60,110 bases of DNA from a virus (IMGVR_UViG_2541047874_000004); one strand, 5' to 3'; positions 1,659 through 40,575 are shown, counted from the first letter of the stretch. A program made the numbers and translations. Notes: generated by a model from the sequence alone, not told the origin.

Positions 1659-4166
1659 TTAAGAATCAGCCTGACTCGGGATCAGTTTTTGCCAGATAAC
1701 TGAAACGTATTTTGCCTGGTAACGGGCGTCATCAAGTGCATTATGGCGCTCACCTTCGAATGGAATAGCCGTTCTGGCATCGAAGTCTATGGCTTTCCCC
1801 AGCTCAACGATTGTGCGTACATCGCGATCGTTGTAGTAACGCCACGGGCAGGGGATCCCCTGCCGTTCGTATGAACGGCGCAAAATCGTGTTGTCGAAGT
1901 TGGCTCCATTTCCCCAAACCTGAACAAAAAATTCACCGGAGTTTTCGTCGATAAATTCTCGCAATTGTAACAGTGCATCATCTAACGGGATTTCATCGGT
2001 CATAATGGCAGATTGCGCTTCGCGTGATTGCTTAAGCCACCATTTAATGGTGTCCCGATCAATGACTCCGCCAGCAGTTTCCAGATCGATAGTCTTACTA
2101 AATTCCGGTCCCATATCTCCGGTTTGCGGATCGAAAAATATTGCACCTATTGAGATGATCGGGGCATCAGGATTTTTTCCCATGGTTTCAAGGTCGATCA
2201 TTAGATGGTCACACGTCCTGCTGGTGGATGTGATTTCGTGATGACCGTTCACCTTAATTGGGTGATCTGCCGTCTCGCCAGTTTCATTATCGCTATTGTG
2301 ATGCTGATTGCCGCCAGTGTTCTCCTTGTGTGGATGTTCAGCGCCTTCCATTTCCTCCGGATCATCTTCCTGAACTTCAACCTGATACTCTTCATCGAAT
2401 GTTTCTTGGTATGTTGCGTCGCCCATCACCGCGCCACAATCAGGGCAGTTGCCGCCGCCGGTCTGACCGCAGGCGGTGCAGACTTTTTCCACTTCCTGTT
2501 GCGCTACTGGTTCAGGCTGTTTCGTTTCTGGCTCGTTTTGTAACGCATTTGGACTGTTTTGTTCCGCTTTTTGGTAGTTCCGTTCCGATTCATGCTGGTT
2601 CTGGTTCACAGAATCGCGGGTCTGGAGCCCCTTAACCCATTTCGGATCATTCGGGTCACTAATCCCTTCAACAAATTCACCACGTGATGCAGCAAGCAAC
2701 TTATCGGCGTCAGGCTGGCTGATATTGGCTGCCTGCATAATTTTGTTTACTTCGTCAGCGGTAACTTTTATCGGCTCTGGTTGTTCTGAATCTTCAGCGG
2801 TATCTACATTTTGCGGTAAGCCCGTGTATGTGCCATTTTTTCGGGCAAAATATTCTTCTTTTGTGATTTCAGTGGCGCCAGCAGCCAGTGCCTTATCCAG
2901 ACCAGAGAGTTTGTTTGCGCGACCGTATTTTTCTCCGTCCTTATCTGCGAAGAGGAAATAGAACGGCCCCTCACGCTCTACAGATGGTTCAGCTTCCGGC
3001 GCGGTTTCATTTTTTGGGATATCAGATACCTCAGTTTCCACTGCATCAGTTTGTGTTTCTGATGACTGGAGAACATCAACAGTGCCCAGGTCTGTTTCTT
3101 CATTCTCAAACACGCCCTTTGTCGTCAGGTATTCGCAGATATATTTGTTCAGTGCTACGGGATCTTTGTGAATGTCGATCGGACGCTCACGGACAAGGCC
3201 AAAAATAGTTTGGCGGTCGTAGCGAAGGGCATCAGGCTGTTTGCGCATTGATGCCGAGATACGCTTCCAGTCTTCGCGGTCGTTGTCGATAACTTCTTTT
3301 TTTGCCCAGCGATGGATGCTGCAGTCAATGTTTCCGGCATCCACATCACTAGGCCAGAGAGCGTAGGCCAGTTCGTCATCCAGTGTTTTCCATGTCTGCT
3401 TGTATTCGCGATGAATGGCAGCAATGACCGGGCTGATTTTTCCTGTTGAATTTTCAGTGTACTGTTGATTGGCTCTGGCGCGGGCGAGATCAACAACAGA
3501 CGTGTATTTTCCGGTTTCCTTGCGTTCACCTTCGCGACGTTTTTTCCAGATGCGCATCTCTGCCTGAATTTCGGGCCATTTAGCACCAGGAATACATTTA
3601 TGCTTAACCCACCCAATGGCGTGCAACTTAAGCTCCGGATACATGGCGTTAACTTCTGGCATTTTCATCAACGCTTCAACGATATGTCCGTCGAATGTTG
3701 CCATGTCTTCCTGCAACAATTCCTGTGCGCTAATAACCATATCAACGGTGATGTTTTCACATGTGTCGAACTTAACCATGACAGCGTTCTGTACTTCAGG
3801 GGCCAGCTTGTCAAAAGTGACGTTCATCGGATCGGATTCAGTCTCAACCGGGACAAAAGAAGCAGACTCCTCATCCCAGCGGTTTTCCTGCATATATTCA
3901 GCATCCCATGAATCGAGGGCAGGGCGGGGTATGCCAGGTTTATCCTCGCAGACAATAAATTTATAAGCGCAGTCCTGAGCAGCCGGATAATGTTCCAGGA
4001 ATTGCCAGTGAAATTTTGCTCGAGCACGGCGTTCGTCGCCAGCTTCAATGGCTGTGGCTACAGCCACAGCGCCTTCTTCCCTTGTTGCCAGTTCGTCAGG
4101 AATAGCGGCGCAAATAAAGACTTTACTCATTTGTTTTAACCTCATGACAGATTTAAGGATGAACAA
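1659..4166 (-). CDS. RecE-like exonuclease (exodeoxyribonuclease VIII family) with a DEDD-type exonuclease-like C-terminal domain
   Basis: 835-aa ORF; the central segment DADKLLAASRGEFVEGISDPNDPKWVKGLQTRD matches a recalled RecE segment; the C-terminal ~200 aa carry DLETMG...HNALDDA motifs typical of DnaQ-like exonucleases. Confidence 0.6.
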   Translation of the reverse strand: MFILKSVMRLKQMSKVFICAAIPDELATREEGAVAVATAIEAGDERRARAKFHWQFLEHYPAAQDCAYKFIVCEDKPGIPRPALDSWDAEYMQENRWDEESASFVPVETESDPMNVTFDKLAPEVQNAVMVKFDTCENITVDMVISAQELLQEDMATFDGHIVEALMKMPEVNAMYPELKLHAIGWVKHKCIPGAKWPEIQAEMRIWKKRREGERKETGKYTSVVDLARARANQQYTENSTGKISPVIAAIHREYKQTWKTLDDELAYALWPSDVDAGNIDCSIHRWAKKEVIDNDREDWKRISASMRKQPDALRYDRQTIFGLVRERPIDIHKDPVALNKYICEYLTTKGVFENEETDLGTVDVLQSSETQTDAVETEVSDIPKNETAPEAEPSVEREGPFYFLFADKDGEKYGRANKLSGLDKALAAGATEITKEEYFARKNGTYTGLPQNVDTAEDSEQPEPIKVTADEVNKIMQAANISQPDADKLLAASRGEFVEGISDPNDPKWVKGLQTRDSVNQNQHESERNYQKAEQNSPNALQNEPETKQPEPVAQQEVEKVCTACGQTGGGNCPDCGAVMGDATYQETFDEEYQVEVQEDDPEEMEGAEHPHKENTGGNQHHNSDNETGETADHPIKVNGHHEITSTSRTCDHLMIDLETMGKNPDAPIISIGAIFFDPQTGDMGPEFSKTIDLETAGGVIDRDTIKWWLKQSREAQSAIMTDEIPLDDALLQLREFIDENSGEFFVQVWGNGANFDNTILRRSYERQGIPCPWRYYNDRDVRTIVELGKAIDFDARTAIPFEGERHNALDDARYQAKYVSVIWQKLIPSQADS

Positions 4167-4222
4167 ATCCCTGCCATTGCTGGCATATAAGAATGAAACC
4201 GGATATTTATTACGGAACTGTT

Positions 4223-4414
4223 TTAAAGACCTGCCGGGATTTCGATATTATCCTGGTGAATAACTTTATCGACCGGGTAACAGTTACCGGGAATTTTCTG
4301 TTCGGTTGCTGCAGTCATACACTCCTGCATTGTCCTGTGAACACTGACTGCAATATCAACTGGCTCTCCGGAAACAAGAAAAACTGTCAGAACAAGCACA
4401 AATGCTGAATTCAT
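4223..4414 (-). CDS. ydfD: YdfD-like small protein with N-terminal hydrophobic segment
   Basis: 63 aa from the internal Met (MNSAFVLVLTVFLVSGEPVDIAV...), matching recalled Qin YdfD; ATGA overlap with dicB. Confidence 0.6.
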   Translation of the reverse strand: MNSAFVLVLTVFLVSGEPVDIAVSVHRTMQECMTAATEQKIPGNCYPVDKVIHQDNIEIPAGL

Positions 4415-4599
4415 TGTGCACATCCTTTTGGCATCAGACGTAAACGAGCCAGCATTGAAACAATGCATATTTTATTTAATAGCTCCCGTTCTTGTTTTCT
4501 CTTGTTAATGGCATCTTCAGTAAATACTGGGTTACTGATAGTGACACCAATTTCAAAACAACCTTCAGACGTATTAACGTTTGGTAATAACGTTTTCAT
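4411..4599 (-). CDS. dicB: Cell-division inhibitor DicB
   Basis: 62-aa protein MKTLLPNVNTSEGCFEIGVTISNPVFTEDAINKRKQERELLNKICIVSMLARLRLMPKGCAQ matches recalled DicB. Confidence 0.85.
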   Translation of the reverse strand: MKTLLPNVNTSEGCFEIGVTISNPVFTEDAINKRKQERELLNKICIVSMLARLRLMPKGCAQ

Positions 4600-7093: not shown

Positions 7094-8039
7094 ACGCCCA
7101 CTGGTTATAAACACGCAGCTGGCAATGAAAATTGGCTTAAACGAAGCCATTGTTTTGCAACAACTGCACTACTGGTTGAGAGATACCAACTCCGGCATGG
7201 AATGTGATGGTGTTCGCTGGATTTATAACACAACGGAACAATGGCTGGAACAGTTCCCATTCTGGTCAGAGTCAACGTTAAAGCGCGCGTTTGCAAGTCT
7301 GAAAACGCTGGGGCTTTTGCGTTGTGAAAAGCTCAATAAATCAAAGCGCGATATGACCAATTTCTACACGATCAACTATGGGAGCGAGCTTTTAGATGGT
7401 GGCAAATTGAGCGAATCCATCGGTTCAAAATGCGCCGCTCCATCAGGTCAAAATGACACGATGGAAGAGGTCAAAATGAAACGCTCCATTGGTTCAAAAC
7501 GACCCAATGTCATCGGGTCAAAATGGCCTGATGATCTTACAGAGAATACAACAGAGATTACTACAGAGAATAAAAACACTTTTCGTCCGGAAGCTTCGCA
7601 ACCGGACCCGCAGACGACTGAACAGGATTTTTTAACCCGGAACTCCGACGCGGTTGTGTTTAGTGCGAAAAAACGCCAGTGGGGTAGCAGGGAGGATTTG
7701 GCGTGTGCGCAGTGGATCTGGGGGCGGATCGTGGGTCTCTACGAACAGGCAGCCAGTGATGATGGCGAGATCATGCGACCAAAAGAGCCTAACTGGACTG
7801 CCTGGGCCAATGACGTGCGCACAATGCGGATGCTGGATGGCAGAAGCCACAGACAAATTTGCGAAATGTTTGGTCGGGTTCAGCGAGATCCATTCTGGGT
7901 AAAAAACATCATGAGCCCGTCAAAGCTCCGCGAAAAATGGGACGAACTGGTCATCCGCCTGGGACGTTCACCTGTACAGCGTTGTGTTAATCATATTTCT
8001 GAACCGGATACAGAAATTCCGCCTGGTTTCAGAGGATAA
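7074..8039 (+). CDS. Phage replication initiation protein (replisome-organizer N-domain, DnaT-like C-region)
   Basis: N-terminus MSLLFAERPLVINTQLAMKIGLNEAIVLQQLHYWL is typical of phage replisome-organizer proteins; internal iterons encode repeated IGSK peptides. The ORF track starts at 7020; 7074 is preferred by homology. Confidence 0.7.
   Translation: MSLLFAERPLVINTQLAMKIGLNEAIVLQQLHYWLRDTNSGMECDGVRWIYNTTEQWLEQFPFWSESTLKRAFASLKTLGLLRCEKLNKSKRDMTNFYTINYGSELLDGGKLSESIGSKCAAPSGQNDTMEEVKMKRSIGSKRPNVIGSKWPDDLTENTTEITTENKNTFRPEASQPDPQTTEQDFLTRNSDAVVFSAKKRQWGSREDLACAQWIWGRIVGLYEQAASDDGEIMRPKEPNWTAWANDVRTMRMLDGRSHRQICEMFGRVQRDPFWVKNIMSPSKLREKWDELVIRLGRSPVQRCVNHISEPDTEIPPGFRG
7415..7530. repeat. Iteron-like direct repeats (GGTCAAAATG / GGTTCAAAA, about 5 copies) inside the replication gene; putative origin
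   Basis: Seen directly in the DNA; lambdoid origins are known to lie within the initiator gene. Confidence 0.55.
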
Positions 8040-8079
8040 GTGTTGATTTCAGGTCATGAGGTAATTTTAAGGGGGACTT

Positions 8080-8502
8080 GTGGCAAAAGTTTTTACACAA
8101 GAAGAGCGGGAAAAAATTAAATGGCAGGTGGTGGAACTCGTGCGCCAGAGCGGCCGTGAGACGTTACGGCAACTGGAAGCTAAAACAGGTGCGACTAGAT
8201 ATCTGATGAGCGTTCTTGCCAGAGAGCTGGTAGCCAGTGGCGATGTATACAACTCCGGCTACGGGTTATTCCCCTCTGAACAGGCGCGTAAGGACTGGCA
8301 AAACGCCCGCAAAAAACTCTCGAGGGCAAAGGTGAAGAAACCTGCTGTGGTTGATCCGGACCTTATCTGGTCATCACCTGACGGAGAAATACGTCGCTAC
8401 GACAGTCGCCTAAACATAATCTGTCGCGAGTGCCGGAAGAGCGAAGTTATGCAGCGCATACTGGCTTTCTATCAGGGTAATTTTCAGGACGTGGCGCAGT
8501 GA
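8080..8502 (+). CDS. Hypothetical phage protein
   Basis: 140-aa ORF in the replication-region operon; no confident family. Confidence 0.4.
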   Translation: MAKVFTQEEREKIKWQVVELVRQSGRETLRQLEAKTGATRYLMSVLARELVASGDVYNSGYGLFPSEQARKDWQNARKKLSRAKVKKPAVVDPDLIWSSPDGEIRRYDSRLNIICRECRKSEVMQRILAFYQGNFQDVAQ

Positions 8503-8855
8503 GTGCACCGGCAACCATTCTTGATATGTGCTGTGGCAGCCGCATGTTCTGGTTCGATAAGTCTGACGAACGGGCGATATTCAGCGATATCAGAAAAGAA
8601 GGATACACATTACGCAATGGGAGACGCTTGATTATCAGCCCTGACATTATCGCAGATTTTCGTGCATTATCATTTGCAGACGCATCTTTTTCGATGGTTG
8701 TATTAGACCCTCCGCATCTTGAGAGTGTTGGTGATAACGCCTGGATGGGAAAGAAATATGGACGGCTGAATAAAGATGCCTGGCGTGATGATTCGCGACA
8801 GAGATTTAAAGAAGCCTTTCGGGTGTTGAGGCCGCACGGCGTTCTGATTTTTTAA
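8499..8855 (+). pseudogene. DNA methyltransferase-like fragment, probably truncated
   Basis: 118-aa ORF with LDMCCGSRMFWFDK and VVLDPPH motifs (SAM-binding and DPPH/DPPY-like); ends at a T-run with no C-terminal half, followed by about 1.6 kb without sustained ORFs. Confidence 0.4.
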
Positions 8856-10007
8856 TGGAATGAAACGCAAATACCGGTAAGCCAGATTCTGGCACTGACA
8901 GACAGAAAACCTGTTATCTGTCAACGAACAGGGAAAAAACGATAAAACCCACTGGATTATTTTTATGAAAGAGGCATCCAGTGAGTAGATTCGTAAGGCT
9001 ACAGATACGTATATCTGAATAATTAAATTCAGTTCTGTAAATAAAATTTAATCCTTAACCGGATGGATTTCTGCACCCTCAGAACATCAGGAGGCCGCCC
9101 GAAAGGGCGGTAGTGAAATGCGAAAGTTCAAAATTATTATTGAAACGGGAATAGCTGGTGGAGATTTTGAGGATGTATTCGAAGTGGACGATGACGCAAC
9201 ACCTGAGGAAATTCATGACGGAGCATAAGAAATTTTCTTTAACTACTGCAATTACTCATACCACGAAATAAAAGACGATGAGGAAGAACAAAGTGGCTGA
9301 TTTTTGTTCAGCTAAATATAACATCAGTTTTGAAGAGCGGGATGAACTATTAATGGACTATGGTGAGTTACGCGGTGGAAGTGCTGCTGATGTCGAATCC
9401 TAGCGTGATGACTATGAAGCGGGAAAAACTCCGGTCGAAGCATATTGTGATGAGTGGGGCGATGAATGAGCGAGATTAATTATCAGGAAGGGCATGAAAC
9501 GGCGGGGCAAGCAAAACCAGTGGCATGGCGATATCGCTACGTGAAAAAAGGCGTTACGGACTTTCAGGGGAAGTAGTGGTCTGGTGACTGGAAATATGTA
9601 CCGAAAAAAGAGGATTGTAACGACAGGCCGAACTATCAAATTCAGGCCTTATTCACTGCCTCACCAGTCCCAGTTACATCAGAAGAACTGGTTAAAGCTG
9701 TGCACTTTTATGAACAACTAAAACGCGAAAATCCACCAACATCCGGCAACTAGATTAATGGATTAACTATGTCGGTTAAACGACCAGCCAACTGAAAAAG
9801 CGGAAACCTGATTACAGGTTGCCAGATAAGGCAATGAGCTACCTGGCGCGGAACGGACTGATAAGTATGGGGAATGTTTTACGATGAACCTTTAGACTAA
9901 AGAGTTTGTAACGCTATGTAAGTGATTTTTTCTGGTTTAGATATTTATATGTCCGGCCAAATTGAGGTGTGTTTAAATGTAATTGCACATTGATTGTAGG
10001 AGGAATA

Positions 10008-10187
10008 ATGAAAAACGCATTGCAGTTTTTGTTTGTTGCGTTCTGGTTGTTCGCATCATGTATGCCCATCATCTTCACAGCAAGGTATATGGAAAAAGTT
10101 GATGTTTTGATATTAATATTTGGATATATAAATGCCCTTTTTTTAGGGGTGTTCATGGCGGTCATGTGCATTGAATACTGGCGGTAA
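10008..10187 (+). CDS. Small hydrophobic membrane protein (hypothetical)
   Basis: Internal Met of ORF 9969..10187 (MKNALQFLFVAFWLFASCMPIIF...) with two hydrophobic segments; lies in an AT-rich decayed region. Confidence 0.3.
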   Translation: MKNALQFLFVAFWLFASCMPIIFTARYMEKVDVLILIFGYINALFLGVFMAVMCIEYWR

Positions 10188-10440
10188 ATACAGCGAACTC
10201 CATTGGTTTAGTTGGATATTTACTGTGCTGGACAAAAACGGTTTGCGGGGAAATCTTAGTTAAGTAGAATGACTGCGGGTGCTTGAGGCTATCTGCCTCG
10301 GGCATGGACACCAACGGCAGATAGAGAAAAGCCCCAGTTAACATTACGCGTCCTGCAAGACGCTTAACATTAATCTGAGGCCAATTTCATGCTAGACACA
10401 TGTAGGTTAGCCTCTTACGTGCCGAAAGGCACGGAGAAGC

Positions 10441-12005
10441 AGGCTATTGTTAACACCAAGCTGTAATGTCCCCTTTGAACCATTCTAAAATGTCCCCAGA
10501 CAATTCTCTGGGGGATTTTTCATGATCAAAGAGACTGTTACGATGAGTCATAAGGAACTCCACCGACTTCAGATTATTCAGGAACAAGCTGCGGCACGCA
10601 TTGGCATTTCTATTCGGCAGGTTAAACGTCTGGTGCAACGGTATAGAAATGAAGGGCCTTCTGGTCTGGTTTCCCACCGACGTGGAAAGCGTCCTAATAA
10701 TTCCTTTTCTACTGAATTCAGAGCAACAGTAATTTCACTCCTCAAAGGCCGTTACGCTGATTTTGGACCTACGTTTGCGTGCGAAAAATTGCGCGAGATA
10801 CACGGTTTATCTTTATCCGTTGAAACTCTCAGAAAGTGGATGATAGAAGAGGGGTTATGGCGTGAACGCCGTCGTAAAATTGCCCGTATATATCAACGCC
10901 GCATGCGACGACCATCTTACGGTGAACTGATCCAGATTGATGGCTCACCTCATGACTGGTTTGAAAATCGAGGCCCCAGATGTACACTGATCGTTTTCAT
11001 TGATGATGCCACCAGTGCGTTGATGGCGTTGCGTTTTGTGCCTGCTGAAACAACCCGGGCTTACATGGAAACCCTCCGGGGTTACCTTAATGATCATGGC
11101 GTACCGCTCGCTCTCTACTCTGATAGACACAGTATATTCAGGGTAAATAACCCAGAGCGGGAAGGTGAGCTGACCCAGTTCACTCGTGCGATAAAGACAC
11201 TGGGCATCGAGCCAATCCATGCCAACAGCCCGCAGGCAAAAGGGCGGGTAGAGCGCGCCAATCAGACACTACAGGACAGGCTGGTCAAAGAAATGCGGCT
11301 TCAGAATATCAGTGATATTGAAACAGCAAATGCATGGTTGCCGACCTTTATTGAAGCCTATAACAACCGGTTCGCTACGTCGCCTCGTACTACTGATAAT
11401 GCTCATCTTGATGTGCACCATTCTGAAGAGGAACTGGGTTATATCTTCAGCCTACAGGCGAAGCGCGTTCTGTCTAAAAATCTCACTTTCCAGTACAAAA
11501 GCAGTGCGTTTCAGGTACGCAGTGAGGGCCGGGGATATCGACTTAGGCATTCGGTTGTTACTGTATGCGAGAACTTTGACGGTGAAATTAACGTTCTGTA
11601 TGACGGGAAAGCGCTGGGCTGGGAAAAGTATGTTGATGGCCCGGAGCCTATACCACTGGATGATGAAAAGAGTGTCCATGAACGAGTGGATAATGCCCGT
11701 ATTGATTTACGCTCAAAATACTATGTTAAACCTAAAGCTGACCATCCCTGGCTTACGCGCCGAACGCAAAGTCATCAGCAAGTTAAGCCCCCGAAGTTAC
11801 CTAAAAAGAAGCCTGATCCCGATAAAAAAGATTGAAACCAAGATCGATTCGGTTGAGTGCATATCCATTCATAGGGTAGATTCTTAAGTCGCGTTTCTGG
11901 TGTTCATTTTCGGGTGGTTTGTTACTTGTTTTACCGGGGATATGCCAGAAACGCGCTGAGTCAGTCTGGGCGGTGCGCGTAATGAGGCGTTATGGTAAAT
12001 AGCCT
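10441..12005. mobile_element. Putative IS element carrying a DDE transposase; boundaries approximate
   Basis: Transposase ORF flanked by imperfect terminal matches (AGGCTATT at 10441 and its inverse near 12005); interrupts the Qin-like gene order between the replication region and flxA. The boundaries were not verified. Confidence 0.4.
10522..11835 (+). CDS. DDE transposase (integrase-core/rve type, ISNCY/IS481-like)
   Basis: 437-aa ORF with N-terminal HTH and an rve-like core (IQIDGSPHDWF...LIVFIDDATS...YSDRHSIF...GRVERANQTLQDRL). Confidence 0.7.
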   Translation: MIKETVTMSHKELHRLQIIQEQAAARIGISIRQVKRLVQRYRNEGPSGLVSHRRGKRPNNSFSTEFRATVISLLKGRYADFGPTFACEKLREIHGLSLSVETLRKWMIEEGLWRERRRKIARIYQRRMRRPSYGELIQIDGSPHDWFENRGPRCTLIVFIDDATSALMALRFVPAETTRAYMETLRGYLNDHGVPLALYSDRHSIFRVNNPEREGELTQFTRAIKTLGIEPIHANSPQAKGRVERANQTLQDRLVKEMRLQNISDIETANAWLPTFIEAYNNRFATSPRTTDNAHLDVHHSEEELGYIFSLQAKRVLSKNLTFQYKSSAFQVRSEGRGYRLRHSVVTVCENFDGEINVLYDGKALGWEKYVDGPEPIPLDDEKSVHERVDNARIDLRSKYYVKPKADHPWLTRRTQSHQQVKPPKLPKKKPDPDKKD

Positions 12006-28531: not shown

Positions 28532-28586
28532 CCTGACCCTTCATCACTAAAGGCCGCCTGTGCGGCTTTTTTTACGGGATTTTTTT

Positions 28587-28832
28587 ATGTCGATGTACAC
28601 AACCGCCCAGCTGCTGGCGGCAAATGAGCAGAAATTTAAGTTTGATCCGCTGTTTCTGCGTCTCTTTTTCCGTGAGAGCTATCCCTTCACCACGGAGAAA
28701 GTCTATCTCTCACAAATTCCGGGACTGGTAAACATGGCGCTGTACGTTTCGCCGATTGTTTCCGGTGAGGTTATCCGTTCCCGTGGCGGCTCCACCTCTG
28801 AATTTACGCCGGGATATGTCAAGCCGAAGCAC
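28587..28832 (+). pseudogene. E: Major capsid protein E, 5' fragment (first 82 codons) interrupted by the satellite insertion
   Basis: MSMYTTAQLLAANEQKFKFDPLFLRLFFRESYPFTTEKVYLSQIPGLVNMALYVSPIVSGEVIRSRGGSTSEFTPGYVKPKH matches lambda E up to KPKH, then diverges (LAWLSEAFV, stop at 28862). Confidence 0.9.
28822..28831. repeat. Left copy of the 10-bp direct repeat AGCCGAAGCA (putative attL core of the inserted satellite)
   Basis: Identical 10-mer at the other junction (39785..39794), both in the E reading frame. Confidence 0.7.
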
Positions 28833-28994
28833 TTAGCATGGCTTTCTGAGGCTTTCGTGTAGTTGCTGGTTTTTACACTTAATCTTTTGATAATAAAGAA
28901 TAAGTTTATCTGGCGCTTTCACTGAATTTTCCTCGTTATCTGTGTGTTGCAATCATCTCTGTATTGCAGCTTGTATTGCTTTTTGGGGCTAAAA

Positions 28995-30230
28995 ATGGCT
29001 GGCGAGAACAAACTGAGCGACAAAGCGCTTAAAGGATATCTGGGGAAACCCAGAGAAAAGCAGATCACCATTGCTGATGGAAAGGGGCTTTCTATTCGTG
29101 TGAGTACTAAAGGGGCTGTGAGCTTTGTTTTCTTCTACAGGTTAGCAGGTGGCCGGGCTGCTCCGGTCTGGCTAACGTTGGGTAAATATCCTGATATGTC
29201 ACTCAAACAGGCAAGGGAAAAGCGCGACGAGTGCCGTGGTTGGTTGGCTGACAAACGTGATCCGCGTATCCAGATTAAGATTCAGGCTGAAGAACGCTTA
29301 AAGCCGGTCACAGTGGAGGATGCACTAAATTACTGGTATGAAAATTACTGTAAGGTGCGTCGTAAAACTCATGCTGTAACGCTTGGCAGATTTCGAAAGC
29401 ATATCTTTCCCTATATCGGTCATTTGCCCGTAAATGACACTCACCTATATGAATGGCTGGACTGTTTTGACCGAATTAAACGTAATGCACCAGTTATGGC
29501 GGCGTATGTTTTTTCTGACACTAAATTAGCTCTTCGTTTTTGTCGGGTACGCCAGTACGCGACGTGTGATGCTTTAAAGGATTTGCGCATGAGTGATGTG
29601 GGGCAGATTGCAGGTAAGCGAGATCGGGTTCTGGATGAAGCCGAACTCGGCCAGCTCTGGAAGGCAATTTTTGTCGAGCCTGATTTAAAACTAATGTCTG
29701 AATACACGCGAAAAATGTTTGTGCTTTGTACAGTATTTGGATGTCGAATGAGTGAAGCCCGATTATCAGAATGGAGCGAATGGGATCTCGAAAGTTGGGT
29801 TTGGACTGTACCAAAAGATCACTCAAAAACTGGTGTTGAAATCGTCAGACCAGTACCTGAAATTCTACGACAGTGGGTAACGGATGTTCACGAAGAGACA
29901 AAACATACTGGTTATGTGCTGGGAAGTCTGCGAATTAGAGAAAGCGTAAGCAAGATTGGGGGGAAAATCGGTAAACGTTTGGGCCATGAAAAACAATGGT
30001 CACTACACGACCTTAGAAGAACGCTATCTACTCATCTAAGTGATCTCGGTGTTGAATTTTATGTAGTAGAACAACTGTTAGGCCATGCGCTACCTGGCGT
30101 GGCAGGTGTTTACAATCGGAGTAAGTTTATGGCTAAAAAACTGGATGCTCTGGAACTCTGGACTACATATCTCAATAGCATCGCAGGTGCTGATTCAAAA
30201 GTGACAATCCTCAAACAAAAGGCTGGTTAA
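28995..30230 (+). CDS. Satellite tyrosine integrase (P4-type)
   Basis: About 411 aa from MAGENKLSDKALKGY...; arm-binding-type N-terminus and C-terminal catalytic region (HDLRRTLSTHL...LLGHA...VYNRSKF). Confidence 0.85.
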   Translation: MAGENKLSDKALKGYLGKPREKQITIADGKGLSIRVSTKGAVSFVFFYRLAGGRAAPVWLTLGKYPDMSLKQAREKRDECRGWLADKRDPRIQIKIQAEERLKPVTVEDALNYWYENYCKVRRKTHAVTLGRFRKHIFPYIGHLPVNDTHLYEWLDCFDRIKRNAPVMAAYVFSDTKLALRFCRVRQYATCDALKDLRMSDVGQIAGKRDRVLDEAELGQLWKAIFVEPDLKLMSEYTRKMFVLCTVFGCRMSEARLSEWSEWDLESWVWTVPKDHSKTGVEIVRPVPEILRQWVTDVHEETKHTGYVLGSLRIRESVSKIGGKIGKRLGHEKQWSLHDLRRTLSTHLSDLGVEFYVVEQLLGHALPGVAGVYNRSKFMAKKLDALELWTTYLNSIAGADSKVTILKQKAG

Positions 30231-30231
30231 C

Positions 30232-30459
30232 ATGAAAAAAATGGCAATTGTTGATAAAAAGGGTCTGGAGTACATTCCTAACATTGATCGTATGATCCGT
30301 GAGAAAGAATGTCGGGAGCTAACCACTCTTGCGAACAGCACACGCTGGAAGCTGGAGAAGGAAGGAAAATTTCCTAAGCGGATCAAGATTGGCGCTACTG
30401 CGGTAGCTTACCGTCTCTCCGAAGTTCAGGCATGGATTAGGGGGGAATGGCGGACATAA
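30232..30459 (+). CDS. alpA: AlpA-family transcriptional regulator
   Basis: 75 aa with the AlpA-type HTH (ECRELTTLANSTRWKLEKEGKFPKRIKIGATAVAYRLSEVQAWI) directly after int, as in PICI/P4-like satellites. Confidence 0.75.
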   Translation: MKKMAIVDKKGLEYIPNIDRMIREKECRELTTLANSTRWKLEKEGKFPKRIKIGATAVAYRLSEVQAWIRGEWRT

Positions 30460-30495
30460 ATGTTGTAGTAAATTGTTATATAAAAGGGTGTAAGC

Positions 30496-31371
30496 ATGGC
30501 TACTCGAAAAAAAAATAGCGTAGAAATGAAAACTGTTTGTGAACTAATCATATCAAGAGATGATATGAAAGATAAAATTCAAGACAGAATTCAAAAAGGA
30601 TTATTACTCCTACAGAAAAGCATAAATAACAATAGTGACTTGGAGCTGTTTAATGCTGATTACAGGAAATGGAGTGATTTTAATGCTGAGCTACTGAAGC
30701 GTAGTTTCACAAATGATGATTTCAAAGAAGAATATGAAGGTGGGGCATTTGGTGTTATTTCATTGTACGAGACTTCCTTGGGAGAAAAAATCAGTGAGGC
30801 TACGCGTAAACTCCAGAGTAAGATAAGAAAACTAGAGTCGATTATGGAGCGACTGGAGTTAATTCCTATATCTTCCAAAGTTGTTGAAGAAAATATTGAA
30901 GTACCTCAGAGTTCAGCGGTAAAAACCAAAAAGGTATTCATTGTTCATGGAAGAGATGAAATATCAAAAACCAACTTAGAAGTGTTTTTAAGAGAAATTG
31001 GCTTAGAACCTATTGTTCTCCATAGGCAAGCTGATGTAGGTCAGACAGTGATTGAGAAATTTGAAGCAAATAGTGATGTTGGTTTCGCATTCATTCTTCT
31101 CACACCTGATGAGATCGCTTATTTATTGCCGCAAGACTCTTTACCTGATAATGAAAGAGAAAAGGAGTTACGTGCACGACCAAATGTAATGTTTGAATTT
31201 GGTTATTTCGTAGGGAAATTAGGTCGTTCTAAGGTTTGTTGTCTATACACAGGTGATGTAGTGATTCCAAGTGATTTGAATGGTCTTATTTATAAAAAAT
31301 TCAATTCTTCTATTGAAGAAGTAGCATATAGCATTATTAAAGACTTGCGAGCTACTGGTTACGCAGTTTAG
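30496..31371 (+). CDS. TIR-like nucleotide-binding domain protein (Cap12/PycTIR-type C-terminal domain) with coiled-coil N-terminal domain; candidate anti-phage effector
   Basis: C-terminal KKVFIVHGRDEISKTNLEVFLREIGLEPIVLHRQADVGQTVIEKFEANSDVGFAFILLTPDE...RARPNVMFEFGYFVGKLGRSKVCCLYTGDVVIPSDLNGLIY fits the recalled TIR-like family signature; no cyclase or partner gene adjacent. Confidence 0.65.
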   Translation: MATRKKNSVEMKTVCELIISRDDMKDKIQDRIQKGLLLLQKSINNNSDLELFNADYRKWSDFNAELLKRSFTNDDFKEEYEGGAFGVISLYETSLGEKISEATRKLQSKIRKLESIMERLELIPISSKVVEENIEVPQSSAVKTKKVFIVHGRDEISKTNLEVFLREIGLEPIVLHRQADVGQTVIEKFEANSDVGFAFILLTPDEIAYLLPQDSLPDNEREKELRARPNVMFEFGYFVGKLGRSKVCCLYTGDVVIPSDLNGLIYKKFNSSIEEVAYSIIKDLRATGYAV

Positions 31372-31400
31372 TAAATTCTTTGAACTAAAAATCTGCATAG

Positions 31401-31434
31401 ATATAGAGCCATTCGAGATAAATGGCTCTATATG
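31401..31434. terminator. Bidirectional terminator-like hairpin between convergent satellite genes
   Basis: ATATAGAGCCATT-CGAGATAA-ATGGCTCTATAT inverted repeat. Confidence 0.5.
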
Positions 31435-31446
31435 AAATATTATCTG

Positions 31447-31626
31447 TTAAATTTTGACTTCATATCCGCGTTGCTGTAGTTCTTTGCGAATAATCCTTTT
31501 AATCCAGGCTGCTAAAGATTCGTCTCCATCTACTTGCTGTGCTTGCTCCATCAACTCCCTCAACTCAGGATCTAACCGAAACTGGAACGGAGGATTACCA
31601 CGTCTTTGATTTTTGTGTGTTGACAC
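31447..31626 (-). CDS. Small ribbon-helix-helix-like regulator (tentative; GTG start)
   Basis: Hand translation of the minus strand: VSTHKNQRRGNPPFQFRLDPELRELMEQAQQVDGDESLAAWIKRIIRKELQQRGYEVKI; RHH-like pattern (FQFRLDPELRE...SLAAWIKRII); divergent from the operator-like inverted repeat. Confidence 0.35.
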   Translation of the reverse strand: MSTHKNQRRGNPPFQFRLDPELRELMEQAQQVDGDESLAAWIKRIIRKELQQRGYEVKI

Positions 31627-38863: not shown

Positions 38864-39625
38864 TTATTTCCCATCTTTAAGGTTTAACCAAGTGTTAATT
38901 AAAAAAAGAGCCATTGAGCCTGATAAATTTACTGCAAGTTCGGCATGCCTTGGGGATGGCTTAATTGATGAGCTGTTCGTTCCATGTGCATCACCGAGTT
39001 TATTACGAAGAGTACCTAACCCATTTACAACTGCAGAACAACCGCCGAGAATTTGTTTGAAGATATTTTCAGTATGTTGGTCGGCAGATAGGTTAAGTTC
39101 TTTTGAAAGAGTTTTATAAAGCTCTGACATTTCAATATTTTTATTATTATACTGAATGCCCATATCATCAAGAATGTGTTTGCAAACTGTTTCAAGAAGT
39201 GTTCTTGCGGAGGTTATCGCACCATCCGGATCTGTATGGCGCCGTTCAAGTGCTTTTATCCAAACGGCGTGGACTCCATCCTCGTTAAACTTTCTTAATA
39301 CATCAGATATGTCTTCATCCGCTGGAGCTTTATTTTTCCCTTCTAGATAATCCAGCATCGGCTGAAATGCCTTATAAATCAAATCTCTCCGGGGGGCATA
39401 CTTTTCAGTCTTTTTTATAAATCCCCAAAATTCTTTTAGTGAGCGATTAGTTCTCACAAACTCTGGTAATAGCTGATGTAAAGGAGGATTTTGTAAGAAA
39501 TATGTTCTTAGAAGCAAATAATCATTATTAGCTTCATCCTGGGCTCCTGTAGCTCTTGCAATTAGTATGTTTTGAAGCGCTACTGCGCGCTCTAGGTCAT
39601 TTTGAAGGGTATCTATAATATTCAT
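38864..39625 (-). CDS. Abortive-infection-like protein with Abi_C-type C-terminal domain; candidate defense cargo
   Basis: 253 aa; C-terminal GLGTLRNKLGDAHGT...PSPRHAELAVNLSGSMALFLINTWL fits the recalled Abi C-terminus signature; opposite strand to the rest of the element, at its right end. Confidence 0.55.
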   Translation of the reverse strand: MNIIDTLQNDLERAVALQNILIARATGAQDEANNDYLLLRTYFLQNPPLHQLLPEFVRTNRSLKEFWGFIKKTEKYAPRRDLIYKAFQPMLDYLEGKNKAPADEDISDVLRKFNEDGVHAVWIKALERRHTDPDGAITSARTLLETVCKHILDDMGIQYNNKNIEMSELYKTLSKELNLSADQHTENIFKQILGGCSAVVNGLGTLRNKLGDAHGTNSSSIKPSPRHAELAVNLSGSMALFLINTWLNLKDGK

Positions 39626-39784: not shown

Positions 39785-39794
39785 AGCCGAAGCA
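39785..39794. repeat. Right copy of the 10-bp direct repeat AGCCGAAGCA (putative attR core)
   Basis: Identical to 28822..28831; E resumes in frame immediately here. Confidence 0.7.
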
Positions 39795-40575
39795 TGAAGT
39801 GAATCCGCAGATGACCCTGCGTCGCCTGCCGGATGAAGATCCGCAGAATCTGGCGGACCCGGCTTACCGCCGCCGTCGCATCATCATGCAGAACATGCGT
39901 GACGAAGAGCTGGCCATTGCTCAGGTCGAAGAGATGCAGGCCGTTTCTGCCGTGCTTAAGGGCAAATACACCATGACCGGTGAAGCCTTCGATCCGGTTG
40001 AGGTGGATATGGGCCGCAGTGAGGAGAATAACATCACGCAGTCCGGCGGCACGCAGTGGAGCCAGCGTGACAAGTCCACGTATGACCCGACCGACGATAT
40101 CGAAGCCTACGCGCTGAACGCCAGCGGTGTGGTGAATATCATCGTGTTCGATCCGAAAGGCTGGGCGCTGTTCCGTTCCTTCAAGGCCGTCAAGGATAAG
40201 CTGGATACCCGTCGCGGCTCTCATTCCGAGCTGGAGACAGCGGTGAAAGACCTGGGCAAAGCGGTGTCCTATAAGGGAATGTATGGCGATGTGGCCATCG
40301 TCGTGTATTCCGGACAGTACGTGGAAAACGGCGTCAAAAAGAACTTCCTGCCGGACAACACGATGGTGCTGGGGAACACTCAGGCACGCGGTCTGCGCAC
40401 CTATGGCTGCATTCAGGATGCGGACGCACAGCGCGAAGGCATTAACGCCTCTGCCCGTTACCCGAAAAACTGGGTGACCACCGGCGATCCGGCGCGTGAG
40501 TTCACTATGATTCAGTCAGCACCGCTGATGCTGCTGGCTGACCCTGATGAGTTCGTGTCCGTACAACTGGCGTAA
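39787..40575 (+). pseudogene. E: Major capsid protein E, 3' fragment (resumes at ...PKHEVNPQMTLRR)
   Basis: Matches recalled lambda E from EVNPQMTLRRLPDEDPQNLADPAYRRRR to the C-terminus DPDEFVSVQLA; no ATG or ribosome-binding site of its own (the ORF track begins at GTG 39799). Confidence 0.9.

Follow-up and report, generated by a model that had tools for sequence, protein, structure and literature searches.

The open reading frame (ORF) at positions 30496..31371 (+ strand) of IMGVR_UViG_2541047874_000004, a 60,110-nucleotide stretch of viral DNA that we refer to as the window, is complete from its ATG start and encodes a two-domain protein of 291 amino acids plus stop, whose C-terminal part is a TIR-like domain of the kind found in Cap12 and PycTIR. 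The gene is carried by a satellite of ~10.96 kb that interrupts the lambda-E-like capsid gene of a Qin-like prophage. We lean, with modest confidence, towards a model in which this TIR-like protein is a single-protein, NAD-depleting abortive-infection module of the PDC-S35 family of PADLOC phage-defense candidates (PDCs). Such a self-contained sensor-effector would be off as a monomer; its N-terminal helical bundle would answer a cue from phage infection and gather the TIR domains, as the pattern of domain swaps described below suggests, and the assembled enzyme would be switched on. By analogy with Cap12 and PycTIR, NAD+ would then be depleted and the infected cell would arrest or die ahead of maturation of the competing phage. 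Clonal hosts, the satellite and the helper prophage could be protected through exclusion of the competitor, as the literature on satellite hotspots would lead one to expect (PMC9122126). The int-alpA operon would drive expression, with a possible contribution of late read-through from the helper.

The protein is identical to RefSeq WP_000235578.1, a 'TIR domain-containing protein', and matches PHROG 16442 (function unknown) from end to end (E=3.8e-133); a search of a large protein collection returned 4658 homologues at E<=1e-3. An earlier interpretation of this DNA from sequence alone (the sequence-only reading) had proposed a TIR-like effector here on the strength of the motifs FIVHGRD, PIVLH, GQTVIEKFE, GFAFILLTPDE, RARPNVMFEFGYFVGKLGR and PSDLNG, and all of these are found in the translation of the ORF. 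The TIR-like match is well past chance and that observation is confirmed. The start codon is supported by conservation of the N-terminus, with M1 kept in at least 90% of the aligned homologues as part of a MATRKK-type start, and a Shine-Dalgarno-like AAGGGTG (30484..30490, + strand) lies 5 nt ahead of the ATG, inside the gap that separates the ORF from alpA.

The TIR-like domain and its predicted active site

The TIR-like (Cap12/PycTIR-type) domain occupies 30931..31368 (+ strand; aa 146-291), as delimited from Pfam, PDB and Foldseek matches. Pfam family PF10137 (CAP12-PCTIR_TIR) aligns with aa 146-270 at 116.1 bits, against a gathering threshold of 24.7 (E=1.2e-33), and the protein covers positions 1-118 of the 119 in the model. 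In an AlphaFold2 prediction built on 36 homologues, with a mean pLDDT (predicted local distance difference test score) of 76.6, beta strands and alpha helices alternate across aa 146-287, as in a TIR/flavodoxin-like fold. When this prediction is compared with the PDB by Foldseek, TIR-STING/Cap12 structures come first (9lmq, 9lmr and 7un8; E=3e-6 to 7e-4) and SARM1 follows, and HMMER searches of PDB sequences, both profile-based and pairwise, match only Cap12 (7un8, 9lmq) and PycTIR (8jsj), in alignments centered on common R-x-N-V-x-F-E-F-G and P-(S/T)-D-L-x-G motifs. The hidden Markov model search and the matches in sequence and fold bear out what the sequence-only reading had said of the C-terminal domain. 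A viral structure library gave no match to the predicted structure at E<=1e-3.

Cap12/TIR-STING (SfSTING; 7UN8, 9LMQ) belongs to the same PF10137 subfamily and is the best match in both sequence and fold. In the cryo-electron microscopy structure of SfSTING, R78 and N80 are among the residues that coordinate NAD+, E84 is catalytic, and D110 of the partner subunit completes the active site by reaching across the dimer, a feature that accounts for activation by filament formation (PMC9402430). A constant offset maps these four residues onto R228, N230, E234 and D260 of the TIR-like protein, where the first three are invariant and D260 is at least 90% conserved in the 36 homologues, which extend down to 57% identity; both the R-x-N-x-x-x-E motif and the trans-acting Asp of Cap12 are conserved in this way. 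We take R228, N230 and E234, the last being a conserved Glu of the kind noted in the sequence-only reading, to be the putative active site, and D260 is predicted to act in trans. From these alignments we infer a catalytically competent NAD+ hydrolase that needs TIR-TIR contact, and like Cap12 the protein is probably activated by oligomerization. The alignment of D260 with SfSTING D110 is what suggests TIR-TIR assembly as the activating step in the mechanism outlined above.

We considered whether the TIR-like domain might act without depleting NAD+, either as a ThsB-like maker of a signal for a distant effector or as another nucleotide or nucleoside hydrolase, related to deoxyribosyltransferase, DNPH1 or MilB. 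TIR enzymes are chemically versatile, weak scores link the fold to nucleoside deoxyribosyltransferase and DNPH1 (Foldseek rank 43 in the PDB, and ranks 5 and 39 in the viral library), and the N-terminal domain is also found fused to signal-making GGDEF and cyclase domains. The best matches in both sequence and structure are nevertheless the NAD+-depleting Cap12 and PycTIR, with the NAD-binding residues conserved, and no Thoeris-type effector is adjacent, so that we judge a different product or substrate to be unlikely.

A related protein is encoded by a phage. Escherichia phage vB_EcoM-689R2 (ON470582.1, our locus L095) carries at 3788-4549 a gene for a 253-aa 'TIR-like domain-containing protein' with 35% identity across aa 115-289 of the query, with a DNA polymerase gene on one side and small hypothetical and nuclease genes on the other. 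TIR domains of the PF10137 type are therefore borne by phages too.

Sequence divergence indicates that the gene is under purifying selection. Orthologues in K. oxytoca (89% identity), E. coli (79%) and Citrobacter (76%) occupy the identical slot of capE-embedded satellites, all of them without a partner gene, and the satellites that bear them differ partly in their replication modules. The ratio of nonsynonymous to synonymous substitution rates (dN/dS) between the gene and these orthologues is 0.11-0.12 overall, with values of 0.04-0.06 in the TIR domain, 0.09-0.12 in the N-terminal domain and 0.26-0.73 in the linker, and in the comparison with the 79%-identical orthologue the dN of the N-terminal domain is up to 8-fold above that of the TIR domain. 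Selection is maintaining the gene, whose putative input domain changes more quickly than its enzyme. Its stable tie to capE satellites across genera is a less expected by-product of the analysis. An inert passenger or decaying gene might be imagined from the low GC content (~36%, versus 43-52% in the satellite backbone and 57-64% in the helper) and from the patchy spread (37 of the 5426 complete E. coli genomes surveyed). With a dN/dS of 0.11 (0.04-0.06 in the catalytic domain), an ORF that is intact in 37/37 genomes at >=99.7% identity, and invariant catalytic residues, we regard that explanation as highly improbable.

The N-terminal helical domain

The N-terminal domain (30496..30870, + strand; aa 1-125) is modeled by AlphaFold2 as all-helical, with pLDDT of about 87-92 and helices at aa 21-40, 46-70, 75-81 and 95-122. 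It is followed by a disordered linker (30871..30930, + strand; aa 126-145) that varies in length and sequence among the aligned homologues and has pLDDT<50 at aa 131-142. The sequence-only reading had described an uncharacterized coiled-coil domain in this position; the prediction is of a compact helical bundle and not an extended coiled coil, and the domain turns out to recur as a module in fusions with many kinds of effector. No Pfam family matches it. A profile search of 1.84 billion proteins recovered at least 1871 representatives of clusters formed at 50% identity, and the same TIR-like domain is present in 76 of the best 150 matches.

Among the longer proteins in the remainder of those best 150 matches, C-terminal fusion partners were read by Pfam and PADLOC. 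They include GGDEF domains (P0260 and P0174), with a weak resemblance to the Cas10 palm; a class III cyclase (P0251), weakly resembling PycC; a canonical TIR_2 domain (P0168) like the TIR associated with prokaryotic Argonaute (pAgo) proteins; DpnII/MboI-like restriction endonucleases (P0252 and P0270) resembling the pAgo-associated 'Helical-REase'; a HEPN-type Hypoth_Ymh domain (P0220) resembling PD-Lambda-3_B and Aga_HEPN; an EAD7 adaptor (P0233) with no PADLOC counterpart; and a CBASS-type TIR effector (P0212), called by PADLOC and without a Pfam match. Several more fusions end in unannotated C-terminal domains. This multi-effector family is new, and it too was a less expected by-product.

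One constant input domain with exchangeable effectors is typical of conflict systems, and dimerization is required by TIR NADases, GGDEF domains and class III cyclases alike. Since several of the fused outputs share this need, the fusions suggest that the N-terminal domain may act as a proximity switch under regulation. A broader proposal can be built on the same fusions, in which the domain is an undescribed, widespread sensor or oligomerization module that defines a superfamily of one-protein immune systems with interchangeable outputs and an 'induced proximity' switch, with the TIR version carried by a phage-inducible chromosomal island (PICI) being placed on the alpA/helper-late circuit. 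Immunity would, on that proposal, be triggered by phage induction itself, since the circuit would drive the TIR version. We put this forward tentatively, as possible and rather doubtful in its full extent.

Known systems, candidate partners and the weight of the evidence

The TIR-like protein is a member of PDC-S35. The PADLOC profile aligns with aa 39-291 over positions 10-257 of 264 (E=6.9e-67), and five PDC-S35 models match the protein, with E-values from 6.9e-67 to 9.2e-41. PDC-S35 is one of 145 single- or multi-gene candidates (Payne et al. 2024 preprint), and its model was derived through 'guilt by embedding', from genes that lie within BREX, DISARM or type I restriction-modification (RM) loci. 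The two-domain layout and the single-gene arrangement are the same, whereas the source genes lie within defense loci and the gene in the window is satellite cargo. It stands alone in the window, as do all the copies examined in enterobacterial satellites, the Pseudomonas cassette described below being the exception to the single-gene arrangement.

Membership of the two best-characterized PF10137 systems was considered and rejected. Cap12 has a STING domain and an N-terminal TIR domain, whereas the TIR-like protein has no STING domain and carries its TIR domain at the C-terminus; the NCBIfam Cap12 equivalog models, for which the cutoff is 450 bits, give it 42 and 35 bits and align with aa 221-277 only. 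In agreement with the sequence-only reading, no CD-NTase or other cyclase, nor any sensor partner, is annotated in the satellite or surrounding prophage of genomic copies that are near-identical or closely related. Sensing of a CBASS cyclic nucleotide via STING is excluded as the trigger. PycTIR (8JSJ) depletes NAD+ and shows the same order, with a regulatory domain at the N-terminus and a PF10137 TIR domain at the C-terminus, but its N-terminal domain binds cyclic pyrimidine nucleotides and it is paired with the PycC cyclase, whereas the N-terminal domain here is an unrelated helical bundle and there is no cyclase. Pfam finds no domain for binding cyclic nucleotide monophosphates in the TIR-like protein, and the PADLOC PycTIR match is weak (E=1e-7) and confined to the TIR region (aa 144-273). 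Thoeris ThsB was likewise rejected, the neighbors being alpA and a convergent 59-aa gene of the satellite backbone, with no ThsA-type effector adjacent. The protein appears to work most like the Cap12 and PycTIR effectors, with a helical bundle in place of the cyclic-nucleotide receptor.

A similar overall design is known from AbTir, TcpC and BtpA/TcpB, which are proteins of about 250-310 aa with a helical N-region and a C-terminal TIR NADase, often encoded on mobile islands and studied chiefly as virulence factors. Their TIR domains are of the TIR_2 type (PF13676) and not PF10137, and their N-regions are not detectably related to the N-terminal domain described here; in the Foldseek comparison BtpA is ranked 23rd.

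Standalone TIR effectors and satellite-borne defenses are both already expected by specialists. The element type, the concept of satellite-borne defense and the candidate family are all on record, and the idea is less novel than the sequence-only reading implied, because the family has been catalogued and defense cargo in satellites is well known. The gene opens no new class of biology. If it is active, however, it would provide the first functional evidence for PDC-S35, and it would mean that a Cap12-type TIR NADase could run on a small helical domain without a cyclic-nucleotide partner.

The wider family bears directly on whether the protein works alone. Full-length two-domain homologues occur at 57-62% identity in Pseudomonas, Aeromonas, Plesiomonas and Burkholderiales, and at 31-52% identity in Bacteroidota, Planctomycetota, Acidobacteriota, Poribacteria and other phyla. 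Clustering of flanking genes by BLAST across 80 GTDB loci revealed no universal neighbor, only lineage-specific ones. In distant genomes the neighbors include type III RM methyltransferases, mad2 of MADS, PDC-S59 and STAND-like NTPases, a set in keeping with the way PADLOC derived PDC-S35 from defense loci. In a separate observation on the 52 GTDB loci that share the N-terminal domain, 4 of 101 flanking genes are themselves PDC-S35 matches, which BLAST clustering places at L022, L057, L059 and L062, and this suggests tandem PDC-S35 paralogues in some genomes.

A defined pairing was found in Pseudomonas. In four species (loci L010, L012, L013 and L037; about 8000-10600) the sole shared DNA is a block made up of a TIR-like gene, whose product is 57% identical to the query, and a gene for a 553-aa NTPase with a Walker-A motif, of nSTAND1/AAA_16-like type, that begins -3 to 35 bp downstream. 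Because this block alone is common to the loci, the new and less expected finding of a TIR-like and P-loop NTPase pair indicates a mobile two-gene cassette. In Aeromonas (L005 and L011), a P-loop PDC-S59 gene lies 111 bp downstream of the TIR-like homologue. The Pseudomonas and Aeromonas NTPases have no detectable homology to each other, and neither has a homologue in the window.

These arrangements raise the question of whether the TIR-like protein is only the effector half of a system in which a P-loop or STAND-like NTPase does the sensing, in which case the solo E. coli copy would be dependent on a partner encoded elsewhere, or inactive in its absence. The tight Pseudomonas pairing and the Aeromonas arrangement favor such a division of labor, as does the N-terminal domain fusion with EAD7, an adaptor domain typical of NTPase-centered conflict systems. 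Set against this, the two NTPases are mutually unrelated and absent from the window, the enterobacterial satellite copies (76-100% identity, three genera) are all solo under strong purifying selection, an NTPase is not adjacent in most of the 52 diverse loci, and PADLOC models a single gene. We consider the effector-half arrangement unlikely for the protein in the window. The single-gene arrangement proposed in the sequence-only reading holds for the enterobacterial copies and agrees with the PADLOC model, but 'single-gene' is not universal for the family, because the Pseudomonas homologues travel with a P-loop NTPase.

Several points weigh against the model of a self-sufficient, NAD-depleting defense protein. 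Its NADase activity is assigned by homology. The closest non-enteric homologues accompany a P-loop NTPase, so that the protein may lack full autonomy. The N-terminal domain finds only generic helical bundles as fold matches, and its role in sensing therefore remains conjecture. In the alignment the E. coli domain shares about 42-48% identity with non-enteric homologues, those of Pseudomonas among them, and conservation of this order is unusual for a recognizer of fast-evolving phage proteins. Sites resembling sigma-70 promoters are no commoner in a promoter scan than in shuffled sequence, and none lies in the gap between alpA and the ORF. The association of the family with defense islands is descriptive, being drawn from counts of neighbor families at the 52 loci and unquantified against a control or background set. 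PADLOC itself calls PDCs, PDC-S35 included, untested predictions, and the literature yielded no study of this protein or of the PDC-S35 family (COG4271, IPR019302/CAP12-PCTIR); papers citing PF10137 either left out standalone TIRs or merely used the HMM.

The satellite, its variable slot and its helper

The satellite is bounded by a direct repeat of the core AGCCGAAGCA, with attL at 28822..28831 (+ strand), within the truncated helper capsid gene E (5' fragment, 28560..28862), and attR at 39785..39794 (+ strand). The 3' part of gene E (~39799..40575) resumes at attR, and it is from this that the satellite length of ~10.96 kb follows. The tyrosine integrase gene int (28944..30230, + strand; RefSeq start about 28995) is followed by alpA (30232..30459, + strand), which encodes a Phage_AlpA helix-turn-helix (HTH) regulator or excisionase and lies directly upstream of the TIR-like gene. 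Next come the convergent 59-aa YlcI/YnfO-family gene (31447..31626, - strand), an icd-like gene, DUF4222, primase, single-stranded DNA-binding protein, the satellite's own E-family capsid and decoration genes, an HTH gene, terS and a minus-strand AbiJ-like/Abi_C gene. The int-alpA-pri arrangement, the direct-repeat core and the split helper late gene are those of a helper-embedded PICI, and the key genes are all on the + strand, co-oriented with the helper late genes.

The element is of the published helper-embedded PICI type '11capE'. Its core agrees with the 10-bp identity block described for 11capE (PMC10111431), and Eco567.11capE (Mageeney et al. 2023, PMC10111431) is of the same type, being about 11 kb in length, with int-alpA-pri, its own lambda-E-family capsid gene, and a 10-bp core in helper gene E as its insertion site. 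The helper differs, being Qin-like in the window and an icd-site prophage for Eco567.11capE. In 11capE the zone after alpA, said to hold Bro-N proteins and repressor RNAs, was called a 'dynamic zone', with no mention of TIR or defense cargo (PMC10111431).

The sequence-only reading had placed the gene in a cargo slot proximal to int and alpA, and comparison among E. coli genomes supports this placement. The int-alpA backbone (at least 96.7% identity) is present in 175 of the 5426 genomes, and homology does not extend past alpA. In the five sister satellites that were sampled (L090-L094), the slot equivalent to 30460-31446 of the window holds unrelated cargo: a 265-aa hypothetical protein followed by minus-strand SWIM and HicB-like genes, a DUF2971 protein with a weak PDC-S31 match, a 178-aa minus-strand hypothetical, a 305-aa hypothetical in one and a 467-aa hypothetical in another. 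The TIR-like gene is accessory cargo in a truly variable slot. In all five, a small minus-strand gene borders the slot (YlcI/YnfO in L092-L094, HicB-family or hypothetical in L090-L091). Because such a gene stands beside unrelated cargo, the 59-aa convergent gene, which has no Pfam or PADLOC match, belongs to the backbone, and it was rejected as a partner or antitoxin of the TIR-like protein.

The P4 satellite hotspot likewise holds interchangeable low-GC anti-phage genes in a variable slot (Rousset et al. 2022, PMC9122126), and one validated system there is a single-gene TIR protein, e.g. TIR-NLR (PMC9122126). That TIR is fused to a STAND NTPase and TPR and is not of the PF10137 type, and the P4 family and its slot differ from those described here. 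The post-alpA slot is a possible hotspot for finding new defense genes, and its other cargo (the 265-, 305- and 467-aa hypotheticals and DUF2971) could be mined in the same way. If the TIR-like gene is active, the picture of satellites as carriers of defense genes would reach helper-embedded PICIs.

The TIR-like gene is probably co-transcribed with alpA. Only 36 nt separate the alpA stop from the ORF, and we base co-transcription on the lack of a sigma-70-like site in this gap together with the overlap between cargo ORF and alpA stop in two sister satellites. Downstream, a 13-bp hairpin (31401..31433) between the TIR-like gene and the convergent ylcI/ynfO-like gene is a probable bidirectional terminator, with an RNA folding energy of -17.1 kcal/mol (z=-3.8; equally stable shuffles, 0/200).

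Expression of this kind could instead serve the satellite itself, and we considered whether the protein is a life-cycle or helper-interference factor that alters NAD+ or nucleotide pools and so skews the balance between helper and satellite, or blocks rival lambdoid phages only. The position just downstream of alpA suggests operon-like expression upon induction, helper late transcription can read into a helper-embedded PICI (PMC10111431), and the association with capE-type satellites is kept across genera. Full-length homologues are, however, widespread in non-satellite chromosomal settings in many phyla. Furthermore, unrelated genes fill the slot in most sister satellites, and the TIR-like gene must on that account be dispensable for the satellite cycle. 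A dedicated role in that cycle thus seems improbable to us, and the abortive-infection model remains the one we favor.

A second low-GC cargo gene (38864..39625, - strand; GC 35-41%), annotated as an AbiJ-like/Abi_C (HEPN) 'abortive infection family protein', lies at the attR-proximal end (Pfam Abi_C, E=1.3e-23; PADLOC AbiJ, E=2.2e-21), so that cargo of a defense type is present at both ends of the satellite.

The helper, as seen at positions 1-22500 of the window, is a full-length Qin-like lambdoid prophage with int/xis, exo, dicB/dicA/dicC, relBE, hokD, ydfU, the Q antiterminator, cspB/F/I, lysis genes and ynfO, and several other E. coli genomes match part of this region at 100% identity. 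In NZ_AP022222.1, the closest TIR-carrying genome examined, the late region is the same and the early region is different, at the argU/DLP12 site. Because the early region differs in this way, the satellite can be said to reside in mosaic helpers.

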